A stretch of DNA of 64,000 nucleotides, taken from assembly GCF_036321535.1 (NCBI RefSeq), contig NC_087436.1, forward strand, positions 43,216,001 to 43,280,000, given 5' to 3'. Below the pieces are notes generated by a model. That model worked only from the letters and a program-made list of their open reading frames with translations, had not been told where the DNA came from and ran no database searches. The stretch is from Camelus dromedarius. Lineage: Eukaryota. A program made the position numbers and the translations under genes. Of this stretch, positions 8,157 to 64,000 are shown in pieces. Numbering within the stretch: position 1 is the stretch's first letter; each line of letters starts with the position of its first letter.

Positions 8157-8230
8157 ACATAGAAAACAAACTTATGGTTACCAAAGGGGAAGGGGGAGGG
8201 ATAAATTAAGTGTTTGGGATTTGAATATAC

Positions 8231-8289
<59 letters not shown>

Positions 8290-8456
8290 TCTAATATATA
8301 GCACAGGAAACTATATTCAATATCTTGTAATAACCTATAATGAAAAAGAATAGGAAAAGGAATATATACGTATATATGTGTGTATATGTATAACTGAATC
8401 ACTATGCTGTACACCAGAAACTAACACAACCTTGTAAATCAGCTATACTTCAATAA
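8157..8456 (+). mobile_element. 5'-truncated L1 3' end with internal (TA)n expansion (8235-8284)
   Basis: L1 3'UTR motifs; 14-bp TSD aaaagataatttta at 8143-8156 and 8457-8470 at a TT|AAAA site. Confidence 0.85.
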
Positions 8457-8860
8457 AAAAGATAATTTTATACATATTTTATAGCCATCTCAGAGTATCA
8501 TAGAAGTGTAAACTAATAGAATGCAAGATATATTCTCATTTACATATAATATTCTTATTTACATATAATACAGTAATATTCATATTTCCATCTGCACAGA
8601 GAATAGCAGGTAAAAACATAGGAAGAATGTGAAGTTATACATTTAATACTTCTCAATGCATATTTTTTGCATTAATCAATGCATATATTTTAAATTTTTA
8701 AACAGTTTAAAAAGTTTGATATATATTACTCATTCCTAGCACACAGACATTGAGCAACTAGAATATGCTTGGCTGATGCTCTGATTCCAGGAAGAAAAGA
8801 GACTATCAAAAAGATGTCTTAAAGAGTTTGCTGGACCCTGGCTTACCCATAATGACTCAC

Positions 8861-31352: not shown

Positions 31353-32033
31353 TATCCAACAAGGTCATATATGATCTGGCTACGGCCTCCCTTGGGAACT
31401 ATACCTCTTACCACGCTTACTCTGTACTGCTTCCTTTCTCTTTAGGAAAGAAATTCAGATCCTAGACAGTGTTTTCTTTTTTTTTTTTCTTCAAACTTTC
31501 TAGTCATATAACTCTCTTCAAATGCTATCTACCCTAGAAACTCTGAAAATAAAATATTAAGCATGGCTACTCTATTTGATGTTAAGTGAGTTATGACTGT
31601 TCAGCAATGTCTTCCTTACTTCCTAACTACCAGGACAATGGCTTGTAAACTGTTGTGTTCCAAGGAGGTACATCAGGGATCCTTCTACAAGAATGGTGAG
31701 TTTTGCGAGCTATCACTGTTGGAAAACACAAAGACGAGGCAGCCTAACATGGCAGTCATGTGTTACTTTCCTTTACGGTATTTTGCAACTAGAAAAGATA
31801 GAGTCTTTGCATTTGTAAGAAGTAATGTGTGAAGTAGGGAGGTTGTGTACATTTGCTTAAATGGAGCAATCTGTATCTAACAGAGTTTGAAAATTACAGC
31901 TTTAAATATTTATAATACCCTTCATTCCATATGCCATTTGCCAGTTAAAAAGAACATCACAAACAGTCTCTACATCTACCGGAAAACACATCAACAAATT
32001 ACTCAGCCAATTCCAACAGCAGAAAACGGCATG

Positions 32034-32625
32034 GAGGGGAGGAGCCAAGATGGCAGAGTAGAGCCTCAGCTCACCCTCTCCCACAAATACACCAAGACTT
32101 ACACCTACAAACCCACTGAACCCCACGGAACACTTACAGAACTCTAGCAAAGTGTCTCTCGCTTCGAAATACAGTAGGATTCTCACAAAACCTGGCAGGA
32201 CTGAGATTGGTTACGACCTCAGACAGAGAGGGTGTATTTGCTCTCTCTGGACCTTTCCTGGACTCGCGCCTCTGGAACAGGCAGCGAGCTGAGTTCTGGC
32301 GCCTTCGCTGGGGGCAGGGCGGGGGCAGGGCGGGGGCAGGGCGGGGGCGGGCATTCACAACAGGCCTGCGCACGCTGTCCGCGGAGGCGGGGCGGGGGTC
32401 TGCGCCCACGCTGTGGCGCACCACTGATAAAGATGAACCGCAAATTTATGCTATATAGCCCGGGGAACAGTATTCAATATCTTGTAGTATTGTGGTGAAA
32501 AAGAACATGAAAACGGATATATGTATGTTCACGTATGACTGAAACATTGTGCTGTACACCAGAAATTGACACAACACTGTAAACTGACTATAGTTGAATA
32601 AAATACATATATGGCAATTAAAAAA
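32034..32625 (+). mobile_element. Bipartite non-autonomous L1 derivative (L1 5'UTR ~400 nt joined to L1 3'UTR ~190 nt and an A tail)
   Basis: Begins gaggggaggagccaagatggc (L1 5' start) and ends in an L1 3'UTR (tatagc..ggaac..tattcaatatcttgta..tgtacaccagaaa..aataaaa). 13-bp TSD agaaaac(g/a)gcatg at 32021-32033 and 32626-32638. No ORF1 or ORF2. Confidence 0.85.
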
Positions 32626-35069
32626 AGAAAACAGCATGATTATAGATAGCTCTGTGTTTGCACTTAGGGAAAGCAGCATTCGCCTTTTGATGAAAACTTG
32701 TCTTTCGCAAGAAGGTCAGTGTCGAGATTTAGGTGTTTTCACAGAGCAGAATTCTTCAGGAGCCGTAGCTGTAACATGCCGGGAGGCCTCTGTCACACAC
32801 AGGTTAGCACTGGTTGAGAATTACTATTAAGCTTCTATCCCAGATACTATGTAGTGTCTCCTTTTGAATTAGCATTATGAAAGATAAGGTTGGGAAGCAT
32901 CCCAAAATTATCATGCAGTTTTAAAGTCAGGATGATTCAAATTATTTCCCTAAATATCTCGTAAATGTGCAGCTGCAAAGGATGTAAAAAACGAATGGGT
33001 ACTAATTGTAGTCACAAAAATAAGGACTACTTTGTGTACTCTGGGGGTATGCTTAGGCAAAAGAACAAAAGATATGCTTGTCCGCGTGCTCAGTAGTTAA
33101 AAAAACATTTTATTAATTAAACTGTCATACAAATTTTCTCAGATAATCTGAATATGACAATTCTTTCCTAGAGTTAGGATGTTACAAATTATCTTAACCA
33201 TCTTCTCTCCAAAGGTCCTCTTTAAAGGATTGTAGCTAGGCTTACAGCTAAACTATTAGATGATATTTAAATGATTAATGTACTAAATCTTTCTAAGAAG
33301 GTTAAATTTTATGGGGTGTTTACTATGTCCTCTTGTGTTATCCCCACCACTATGCTATTAGGGCCATTTAAGATGATGGCTCATAGTCACTTACCCAAGG
33401 GCACAGTGACAAGCGGTATGATCTGGGTCTGAACCCTGAAGGACTCCAAACTCAGAGCTCCTTCCACTCCCCTCAAACTGTCCCCTTCACCTGGGATCAA
33501 ACTGACCCAGAGAACAATCACACTTTTCTCTGGTAATCGAACACTTAGCCTTCTCCTAAGCCATTCACTTGAGATGACAGTATTGGAAATGTCAGGCCTT
33601 GCTGGATGAAGACTGTCGAAGTGCACTCTTAGGCACCAGAAGTCTTCCAGTTTTTATTTCCAGTGGTCAAGAAATTTAGGGTAGTGGTAGAAGAGAGAGA
33701 AGGCTGCACATTTTATATTTGTTATTTAACCCTACCAGCCCAGTGAAATAAGTAAGAAATCCCTATATGTCTCAAGGAAATTAACATTCACGGGGATTAA
33801 GAAGCATGCCTGAAGTTCCACCCCACTTACAGTGCAGAACTGAATTTGAACCCACACATAAACGAATTCTAGAGCTCATGTTCTTTCTACTACAATATTC
33901 TGTCATGTGTTTTAGCAGTAAATCTGACAACGTTTTGTCATGTCTGGCAATTGTCAACAATCAGAAACACCACTGAAAATGCATCCCCATTGGGTCTACC
34001 ATAATCACCGTTTTCACCTCCTCACGGATAAATTACCAAGAATTTATGTGGATAATTTTACGTATTTCACGGAACTTGCTCCAGTGCACCCTATACATCA
34101 ACCTGAACTAACCTTCCTAAAAGCTGTTTCAGCAAACTACTTTCCTACATTGATTGTCATCTTACCAACCATGATTAATGATCGGTTTTCACAGACCATG
34201 GCTAAAGATGAAGATCTTTTAGATCCTTTTCCCATTGTCGTATTAAGAACAAACCTTCAGTGTGAATTCTGATGTTTTTCCAGACCAGCTTGTCTTGCCA
34301 ATATTTCTACACTCACCAAGCTCAACTGTACCTCCTACCACTCTTGTAACTAATCTTCCTGTAGAAAGTCTTCTGTTTCAATTTCTACTCTGCAGACCTT
34401 ATCTCCTTTTCAAAGCTGGGCTCAGGTTGTCTATGAATTTTTCATTAACAGAATTTAGGCAATTTCAACCTTCCTCTCTAGATCTAGTCTGTTCCATACA
34501 ATTTAGTACCAAATCATCTACCATCTTCTGCTGTTTGCCTTTGTTTCTTGTGTGCTTGTTTTGACTTTGCATGCAGCCTGTCCATTTTTTAAAAGCAGCT
34601 TCCTGCCTGGCACTTGTTTAGAATCCTCCAAAGCAGTGAGAACTCTGCTGAGTACATAGTGAGCACCCAGTAAGCAGCTTCTGAATAACAACTTTACTCT
34701 CAGTTCCTGACAACTGTAGATAACTTAGATTTGACCTTTTCTCCCTTATTCAAGTTTAAAATTTAAATTTAACCAGTGACTTATCACTAGTTCATTCTAC
34801 AAAGGAGCTGAAGTGGTTGGTGGTATTTTATTTATTTTCACATGACTCCATAATGTTGAAAATATGTATCTCCATGTTTCACTTTATAAAAATGAACTGT
34901 TAAACTATGGCTGCATAATTTTATAGGTTATGTTCTTGGATTTGTAAACAAAAAATAAGTCAAATGAATTTTTAAATAACCATAGGTAAAGCAAATGAAT
35001 TTTAAAAGAAAGTAAATGAAATTTTTTAAATGAAGAAAGCAAATGAATTTTCAAAATGGAATGCCCAAG

Positions 35070-46699: not shown

Positions 46700-47191
46700 A
46701 ACTTTTTTGTTTGTTTTTCACTGATTATTTTTAATTAAAGTATAGTCAATTTACAATGTTGTGTTAGTTTCTGGTGTACAGCATAGTGATTCAGTTATAT
46801 ACACATATATTCCTTTTCCTATTCTTTTTCATTATATGCTATTACAAGATATTGAATATAGTTCCCTGTGCTGTACAGTAAGATCTCGTTGCTTATTTTA
46901 TATATAGTAGTTAGTATCTGTGAATCCTGAACTCCCATTTTATCCTTCCCCACCCCTTTCCATCCCTGGTAACCATAAGTTTTTTTTCTATGTAAGTCTA
47001 TTTCTGTTTTTAAATAAGTTTGTGTCATTTTTGTTGTTGTTGTTTTTAGATTTCATATACAAGTGATGCCATATGGCATTTTTCCCCCTATTTCTGGCTT
47101 ACTGCACTTAGTATGATAACCTCTAAGTCTATCCATGTTGCTGCAAATGGTATCATTTCATTCTTTTTTATGGGTGAGGGGTATTCCATTT

Positions 47192-47224
<33 letters not shown>

Positions 47225-47625
47225 GTGTGTGTACACACACATCCTCTTTATCCAATCATCTGTCAGAGGACATTTAGGTTGCTTCCATGTCTTGGCTATT
47301 GTAAATAGTGCTGCTATGAACACTGAGGTGCATGTATTTTTTCAAAATAGAGTTTCCTTCAGATATATGCCCAGGAATGGGATTGCTGGATTATACAATA
47401 AGTCTACTTTTAGATTTTTAAAGAATCTTCAACCTGTTTTCCATAATGACTGCACCAAACTACATTTCCACCAACAGGGTAGGAGGGTTCCCTTTTCTTC
47501 ACACCCTCTCTAGCATTTATCATTTGTGGGCTTTTTAATAATGGCCATTCTGACTGGTGTAAGGTGGTATTTCATTGCAGTTTTGATTTGCACTTCTCTG
47601 ATAATTAGCAATATTGAGCATTTTT
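46700..47625 (-). mobile_element. L1 3' fragment (end of ORF2 plus 3'UTR) with internal (TG)n
   Basis: Typical antisense L1 sequence: ttccatgtcttggctattgtaaatagtgctgc, gggattgctggat, ccattctgactggtgtaagg. Confidence 0.9.
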
Positions 47626-50879: not shown

Positions 50880-51028
50880 CAGGTGGGGAGGGGTAATTAG
50901 ATTTATTTATTTATTTATTTACTTACTTACTTACTTACTTATTTATTTTTAAGTGGCAGTACTGGGGATTGAATCCAGGACTACATGCATGCTAAGCACA
51001 TACTCTACCACTGAGCTATACACTTCCC
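50880..51028 (-). mobile_element. tRNA-derived SINE (Vic-1-like, camelid type)
   Basis: Minus strand has A box tagctcagtggtagag, B box ggattcaatccc and a (TAAA/TAAG)n tail. Confidence 0.8.
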
Positions 51029-62400: not shown

Positions 62401-63562
62401 GACTGCTGTCATATCATGGAATTCATGTCTTTCAACCGTAGGAAATAAAAGATAAGTAACTGTCTTTACACTAATGTTTTGATTTTAGAATTTCTAGCCA
62501 AAAATATATTTAATTAGCAACTGAGTATGTTGGGTAATTGTTATCAGAAAAAAACAACTCGGCATCAACTGGACTTAACACCAAAATGTTTTATCTTGTG
62601 AATGTGAGCTAACATATAAATTAATCATATTTTAAATGGCAAGTGATAAATAAACCCATTCAATAGGACTCAGCTAACTCCCTGAGAATATACTTTGCAG
62701 TTAACCCATTTTGGTGAGTCCTTCAAGTTATGTTTCTAAAATTCAAATTTCCCCCAGGAGCTACACTAATCCTCTTCCCGCTTACCAAAGTCAATTAGCA
62801 ATAATGGCCCACATTCCAAAGGATGTTTTGTTGTTAGATATTTTTTCACTTTGTGCAGGTGGGAAGGAGGTAGATATGCAAAACAGGTCACACCTTTTAT
62901 GTTTGGGTTCAAATACAGGACAGAGCCTGGTACTTTCCCAGTAGTGCCTCCTATACATACAGTGTTTGAGGCACACAGGTCTTTTTTTGTATCACAGCAT
63001 AAGATACTGTCAGTTTCTGCATTTATTAGAACACTCATCATGAGTGTACTGAGTTCTGACCAAAGAGTGTTCTGAGATAACTTATATTGAACAGAAACAT
63101 GAACTATCCATTCTGCAAGATTAGTATCAGGGTAGATGGTCAGTGACATCACCAAAAAGCAATGTACCTCGGGCATGTTATCTCTATCCACTACAGAAAT
63201 GGCTTCACTGCATCGTGAAATATTACTACACATTTGGTTTTCATATAAAGCAGATATAAGAAATGTCCATTTGAGCAATATTAATGTCCTTATGTCTATT
63301 TTATATGGGATCTCTTGATGAATTATAGTTGAGTTCAATAACAGGAAAAAGTTTAGAATAGGAAAAGCCTCTATGCTTGTTTTCACTAATCTTTAATTTA
63401 GGAAAATTGCATAATTCAATGTGTTTGGCTTTTTTCACTAGTTTACAGGAAACATAGCATAAATTCAGTATCCATCAGAATTAAGTAACACAAGTCCTTA
63501 TTCCTCTCTTCTTTTTACTTCATTTTGCTTTTGTCTTATTTAGTTTCATTTTTAAATACTTC

Positions 63563-63692
63563 TTTTTTGGTGGAGGGAGGCAATTAGGTTTATTAATTTA
63601 TTATTTTTTTTTTTTAATGTAGGTACTGGGGATTGAACCCAGGATCTTGTACATGCTAAGCACACACTCTACCACTGAGCTATATCCTTCCC
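63563..63692 (-). mobile_element. tRNA-derived SINE (Vic-1-like, camelid type)
   Basis: Same structure as the 50.9 kb copy (tagctcagtggtagag...gggttcaatccccagtac); flanked by tttcattttt(ttt)aaat direct repeats. Confidence 0.8.
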
Positions 63693-63697
63693 TTTCA

Positions 63698-64000
63698 TTT
63701 TTTTTAAATTTAAGTAGAGTTGATTTACAGTGTTGAGTTAGTTTCTGGTGTACAGCATAGTGACTCAGTTATACATACATATATGTATTCTTTTTCATAT
63801 TCTTTTTCATTATACATTATTATAAGCTACTGAATATAGTTCCCTGTGCTATACAGTAGGACCTTGCTGTTTATCCGGTTTTGTGGAGTTTTTTTTGTAG
63901 CTTTGCTGTATAAGATCTTCTGCCAGAGTTCAGCAGGTATTCTGTGAGAATTTTTCCACATGTCAATATATTTTTGATGTATTTGTGGGAGGAGATGAGC
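63698..64000 (-). mobile_element. Second bipartite L1 derivative (5'UTR start joined to 3'UTR end), cut by the window edge
   Basis: Minus strand reads gctcatctcctcccacaaatacatcaaaa...cacaaaaccgg|ataaacagcaaggtcctactgtatagcacagggaac...A tail. The 5' part is similar to 32070-32195. Confidence 0.8.

Follow-up and report, generated by a model that had tools for sequence, protein, structure and literature searches.

The window analysed here, a stretch of 64,000 nucleotides from the dromedary (Camelus dromedarius, contig NC_087436.1, positions 43,216,001 to 43,280,000), ends in a short element composed of the two extremities of what we recognise below as an L1 retrotransposon; such elements will be called mini-L1s. 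The copy at the window end lies on the minus strand, has a whole length of ~340 nt and extends ~39 nt beyond the window edge. When the locus was extended into its flank (L001), the 5' end was found at ~64039, close to the point ~35 nt past the window where the original prediction had expected it. The 5' piece (63875..64000, continuing to ~64039 outside the window) corresponds to the first ~165 nt of the L1 5'UTR of a subfamily designated A, and the 3' piece (63703..63874) consists of the final ~175 nt of the L1 3'UTR followed by a short A-rich tail. The predicted passage from 5'UTR start to 3'UTR at 63875|63874 was confirmed on the minus strand, where ...CACAAAACCGG (63885-63875) is joined to ATAAACAGCAAG (63874-63863). 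In parental elements, GT follows the donor side of this junction (63874..63875) and AG precedes its acceptor side in the 3'UTR. An 89-nt contig spans the junction without differences in three DNA runs from three studies, with 28 letters on its short side, slightly below our bridging bar of 31 letters. No empty-site allele of this copy was seen in the assembled contigs of sequencing runs.

Around the window-end copy, a candidate target-site duplication (TSD) of 11 nt with one mismatch was recognised by eye. Its upstream copy lies outside the window at ~64040-64050 of the extended locus, and its downstream copy (63692..63702, minus strand) appears again at 63543-63553, past a tRNA-derived SINE (63554..63691, minus strand) that interrupts it. 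As this SINE was inserted inside the downstream duplication, it is a separate element and younger than the mini-L1; it presumably belongs near the camelid Vic-1 family, which it resembles. A tRNA-like match at 63619-63688 is confined to the SINE, and the mini-L1 itself carries no Pol III head derived from a small RNA. A second copy of a tRNA-derived SINE is found in the window at ~50942-51028. The mini-L1s have no long reading frame, the longest ATG frame ranging from 5 to 93 aa in 43 copies. Antisense to the L1 5' piece, a match to the Rfam family mir-9235 was recorded (L001 1769-1837, plus strand; 34 bits for a cutoff of 95), and this family may be derived from an L1 5' end.

The window contains a second mini-L1 at 32 kb, on the plus strand, bounded by a 13-nt TSD (32021..32033 and, with one mismatch, 32626..32638). 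This copy is built of three pieces: the 5'UTR start of another L1 subfamily, designated B, which ends at the homologous donor (32034..32194), an internal 5'UTR exon preceded by CAG and followed by GT in parental elements (32195..32432), and a B-type 3'UTR end with an A-rich tail (32433..32625), which is entered at the same acceptor base. The original prediction that the 3' piece begins 21 nt before TATAGC in both copies held true (at 32433 in this one). It had also been claimed that the two copies use different 5' breakpoints, the 32 kb copy having no GT at the homologous position and running on to a later break. This was found to be mistaken, since subfamily B carries GT there in 27 of 29 unspliced rows (among the first 100 of 238 matches) and the 32 kb copy uses the homologous first donor, skips ~455 nt and continues with the internal exon. 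The skipped interval became apparent upon alignment with an unspliced relative (L092), which resolved the copy into three blocks. Directly before the internal exon, CAG or TAG with pyrimidines upstream is present in most family rows (first 100 of 294 matches). At the second break, the last 14 nt of the exon align with three mismatches, and the position is followed by GT in two of three gap-free relative rows and by GC in the third. On these comparisons the 32 kb copy was most likely spliced twice, the second donor appearing as the least secure link of this reading, and the corrected three-piece anatomy favours splicing more strongly. The first junction of this copy is a genome-wide singleton at up to 2 mismatches. 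At another locus (G000:C4:86860689), comparison with L095 showed the B donor joined to a different internal 5'UTR AG, which makes it a classical intra-5'UTR spliced L1.

Other features of the window were noted in passing. Ordinary 5'-truncated L1 3' ends, unjoined upstream and with local changes at the acceptor, are present at 8157-8464 (plus strand) and 46725-47400 (minus strand). A 91-bp tandem duplication at 1520-1697 and a 34-nt unit that occurs four or five times (1004, 3396, 16757, 25012) are possibly exons of a repeat-domain gene.

The identity of the parent element was examined at loci where the 5' piece is unjoined. In L091, the same 5' piece continues through ~1.2 kb of 5'UTR and an ORF1-like frame that is broken, and then into the beginning of ORF2, the copy ending at ~2.75 kb. 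The ORF2 start gave a match to the PF03372 endonuclease family with an E value of 0.002 and 18.3 bits, below the Pfam cutoff of 24.5. From this sub-threshold match and from the general look of the element, which we take to be of the L1 clade, the parent of the mini-L1s is recognised as an L1. Donor and acceptor sites were read together in L044 and L053, where the 5' piece and the 3' piece each lie beside their natural neighbours; both copies are internally deleted elsewhere and are not intact parents. These two loci (L044, 1497-3097; L053, 1510-3123) extend from the 5'UTR to late ORF2/3'UTR with other breakpoints, and L044 apparently has an inverted piece at its deletion join.

The parental L1s carry sequences resembling splice sites on both sides of the missing interval, as had been anticipated. 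Directly after the 5' piece, GT is present in 6 of 8 unjoined A loci, in addition to the 27 of 29 unspliced B rows given above. The exon end varies between CCGG, CCAG and CTGG in the A loci, which fits the decay of one CpG. On the acceptor side, the unjoined A-type motif, with AG before the entry base, had 2150 exact matches in the genome and its control 0. In a set of 29 B-type 3'UTR loci, 20 have AG, 16 have a TACTAAC-type branch motif, and 10 have both; in these 10 the branch A is located at -18 to -21. No pyrimidine tract precedes the acceptor in these 29 loci, and this A/T-rich context counts against a strong splice site. A recurrent 3'UTR variant in which CAG replaces TAG at the acceptor (~25-30 of 100 rows, first 100 of 276 matches) is possibly a stronger site.

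The junction is exact to the base in 42 of 43 joined A loci and shifted by one base in the remaining one; the 3' piece opens with AT in 33, GT in 6 and AC in 3. G occupies position +1, where the 3' piece starts, in 9-10 of ~90 joined rows and in 4 of 100 unjoined ones (Fisher p 0.09-0.15); against a 5.7% A-to-G background, the p value was 0.03-0.07. Given this mild excess, a small share of the copies may have been joined a few bases later, in the manner of a template jump; alternatively, parents with an AG/G acceptor may have been spliced more often.

In order to compare joined and unspliced 5' ends, patterns blind to what lies downstream of the donor were counted, and the rows were sorted by eye, the first 100 being classified for each of the patterns used in this work (of 157, 238, 2150, 294 and 276 matches). 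The B pattern had 238 matches for 40 in its control. Of its first 100 rows, 45 are joined to the 3'UTR at the entry base, 29 are unspliced, 25 are unrelated and a single one is joined to another internal AG. The A pattern, in which RTA was fixed after the donor, had 157 matches for 61 in its control; ~39 of the first 100 were joined with A, 5-6 were joined with G and ~27 were unspliced, 8 of the latter being identical copies in duplicated segments. Joined 5' ends thus outnumber unspliced ones by 45:29 in B and about 45:27 in A among these first 100 rows, i.e. ~60% of the 5' ends counted. Identical L1 5' ends lying ~0.5 Mb apart in both orientations at G000:C6:88.5-91.5 Mb and C22:0.77/1.32 Mb appear to form a recent segmental duplication cluster.

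In joined B rows the 3' piece is B-type in ~41 of 45, A-type in 2 and unclear in 2, and a B-type 3' piece is found in none of the 43 joined A loci. An intermediate pairing is present in locus L029 and in some rows retrieved by the acceptor. When unusual upstream partners of the acceptor were inspected, ~12-14 of 100 were L1 5' pieces (first 100 of 276 matches; a figure that does not amount to a count), the other rows being flanks of unique sequence or 3'UTRs altered by mutation. A tree was built from 50 5' pieces, 41 of them joined and 9 unjoined, with B represented by 3 rows and the bootstrap not fully settled. On this tree the label "joined" needs 8 changes, at least 3 of which are forced by well-supported branches, and it is not clustered, 212 of 500 shuffles being as low. 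One origin for all joined copies was rejected as a single clade (p-AU 6e-56). These comparisons argue that the two subfamilies A and B each made their own mini-L1 at the same two bases, in line with the predicted recurrence of one 3'UTR entry base across L1 subfamilies.

The size of the family was estimated in the assembly of 2.31 Gb (171 contigs). Of the best 40 DNA matches among 4626 candidates, 34 span both pieces, including the window-end copy; the 33 others show 77-85% identity, and the remaining 6 matches cover the 3' piece only. An exact 19-nt junction motif was found 39 times genome-wide, and its backwards control 0 times. The 5' piece alone retrieved 30 loci, 22 joined and 8 unjoined. 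Combination of the two genome queries gave 43 distinct joined and 8 unjoined A loci, after omission of 8 duplicate loci and of L028, which has no 5' piece. Among the 43 joined loci, 8 match the 19-nt motif and 13 match the A donor pattern, from which about 210-230 A-type copies are estimated, a lower bound because these loci are near the consensus. For joined B copies, about 107 exact matches were found, and we estimate that B-type mini-L1s exceed ~107 and number a few hundred. The whole family would then comprise several hundred to perhaps a thousand copies, which is not on the scale of a SINE and represents, by rough inference, about 1% of L1 3' ends. The inference of a high copy number from two copies in 64 kb was not supported, the 32 kb form being itself a singleton. 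Even with 1000 copies, the chance of two in one window is 4e-4, so their meeting here is a coincidence.

With respect to TSDs enclosing both pieces, the prediction stood for the family and for the 32 kb copy. Of the 39 joined loci whose 5' end is intact (4 loci with no intact 5' anchor being left out), 19 reached a TSD score of at least 9, vs 10 of 234 mismatched-pair controls (p 7e-12). It stood less well for the window-end copy, whose 11-nt candidate was missed by the scoring script (score 7, below the threshold). The divergence of the 5' piece from the majority letter is 11.2% in joined and 10.6% in unjoined copies, or 9-10% outside CpG-like columns, which suggests that mini-L1s are old and of the same age as their parents. 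A metagenome scan for the junction gave 2 matches, both due to chance, with no bearing on other species.

The reading that accounts for this anatomy, for GT and AG in the parents, for the base-exact junction, the TSDs and the several origins, and to which we assign a probability of roughly 80% from sequence comparison, is that the spliceosome removed both ORFs from L1 RNA and that the product was mobilised in trans by L1 proteins. In successive active L1 subfamilies, a 5' splice site would have lain ~165 nt from the start of the 5'UTR, and a branch motif with AG ~175 nt before the 3' end. Occasionally, the spliceosome would have excised everything between them as one intron of some 6 kb, both ORFs included. 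The resulting short polyadenylated noncoding RNA would have been reverse-transcribed and inserted by ORF1p and ORF2p; since mini-L1 RNA codes for nothing, these proteins would have been supplied from other L1 RNAs. Being short, this RNA would escape 5' truncation, so that the copies retain the L1 5' end, which may explain their excess over unspliced 5' ends. The frequent mobilisation of an ORF-less RNA counts against this reading, given the cis preference of L1 proteins.

Splicing could also have produced only a few master mini-L1s, whose first 165 nt still worked as a Pol II promoter and which were then re-amplified in the manner of a SINE. The entire 5' end is retained, including what we take to be a YY1-type motif, and a few weakly linked variants unite small groups of copies, as such amplification would predict; furthermore, joined 5' ends outnumber unspliced ones, far above the ~2% reported for human SpIREs in the available part of PMC5860796. 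However, once shared polymorphism is set aside, no alignment column tells joined A copies apart from unjoined ones, and linked variants are no more numerous than expected by chance (35 of 5660 pairs at p<0.01). Joined and unjoined copies are interleaved on the 5'-piece tree, and the doubly spliced 32 kb form was never amplified. The column comparison and the tree each leave out 4 rows and the linkage test 6, and all these tests are low in power for pieces of 160-350 nt, copies diverged by ~10% and 8-9 parents. Re-amplification from masters is thus regarded as doubtful, and we favour mini-L1s as one-off products of many parents, with which small master lineages would be compatible. The copies with G at +1 were considered as such a lineage and rejected: they are not mutual kin (mean distance 0.158 vs 0.160-0.165).

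In principle, the junction could have arisen not by splicing but through recombination at short homology or a template jump of the reverse transcriptase. The sequence G-(G/A)-TA(A) is common to donor and acceptor around the break, G is slightly in excess at +1, and internally deleted L1s with unrelated breakpoints do exist (L044, L053). We nevertheless consider this origin quite improbable, as in ~90% of the junctions the break directly follows the single shared G instead of falling within the longer TA(A) that is also shared, three different junctions are all located at GT-AG, and the kinship test of the G(+1) copies was negative. It is likewise improbable that the full-length RNA first bound its own ORF1p and ORF2p in cis and was spliced once back in the nucleus, before reverse transcription. 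Such an order of events would explain the abundance of mini-L1s, by inference only, with no breach of cis preference, but splicing is mostly co-transcriptional. Finally, the weak TSD of the window-end copy could be seen as a sign of two L1 fragments juxtaposed by chance or by an assembly artefact; the dozens of copies scattered over the genome that have this one junction and TSDs, together with the 89-nt contig recovered in DNA runs of three studies, make this negligible.

Mini-L1s can be compared with several known systems. Processed pseudogenes arise when L1 proteins insert, in trans, a copy of a Pol II transcript that has been spliced and polyadenylated. The proposed mini-L1s would follow the same route, with the L1 itself as the source transcript. 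According to the available text of Larson et al. 2018 (PMC5860796), the human L1 copies named SpIREs (spliced integrated retrotransposed elements) represent 131 of 6609 (~2%) full-length L1s; they are of the intra-5'UTR or 5'UTR/ORF1 class, keep ORF2 and were called dead ends. Like mini-L1s, they lack a GT-AG interval from a 5'UTR donor, use several acceptors per donor, recur over subfamilies and have TSDs. In mini-L1s, by contrast, the acceptor is in the 3'UTR (~175 nt from the end), both ORFs are lost and ~60% of the counted 5' ends are concerned.

In anatomy, mini-L1s resemble the bipartite ORF-less LINEs (Bov-A, RIME, RTE-N and Vingi derivatives) treated in Kojima 2018 (PMC5786205), which also keep nothing of the parent LINE but its 5' and 3' ends, contain no ORF, are short and multi-copy, and are presumably transcribed by Pol II. 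In the accessible sections of that paper, the sources then reported were only RTE, Ingi, Vingi and R2, whereas the parent of mini-L1s is an L1, and splicing is not mentioned there as a source of bipartite LINEs. In addition, bipartite LINEs form families of their own, whereas mini-L1s have no visible master lineage and a single origin is rejected. HAL1, described in the same sections, is likewise a non-autonomous L1 derivative with 5' and 3' ends; it retains ORF1, whereas the ~340-nt mini-L1s retain no ORF. Thus, mini-L1s work like SpIREs, look like bipartite LINEs and fit neither described class fully. Full-text searches, covering few of the subscription journals, listed no paper describing ORF-less spliced mini-L1s, and a consensus may already be present in Repbase or Dfam. 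No such element appears in the available portions of PMC8605555, which deals with camelid repeats, bioRxiv 2025.02.02.635956, PMC7245038, PMC13756887 or PMC4408412.

As the copies are old (~9-11% diverged), their present-day effect is probably small. Repeat annotation is expected to break them into two fragments, which would inflate counts of L1 promoters. They widen the reach of L1 splicing, which in human is a rare dead end (~2%), to a class comprising more than half of the 5' ends counted in two subfamilies. They also supply an L1 case of an anatomy for which the consulted sections of PMC5786205 name only RTE, Ingi, Vingi and R2 as sources. Mini-L1s could serve as a natural test of cis preference, i.e. 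of how an ORF-less L1 RNA recruits L1 proteins, of whether splicing acts as a host brake or as a source of L1 parasites, and of one mechanism for the "internal deletion" seen in LINE derivatives. A bolder reading, which we regard as tentative and rather unlikely, is that mini-L1s represent the first case of bipartite ORF-less non-autonomous elements in the L1 clade, each subfamily having shed a promoter-bearing parasite of ~340 nt that was re-amplified in trans. If this were true, the L1 lineage would have kept an intron over both ORFs through several subfamilies, and LINEs would have given rise to Pol II SINEs by splicing more than once, perhaps also in related mammals with the same 3'UTR.
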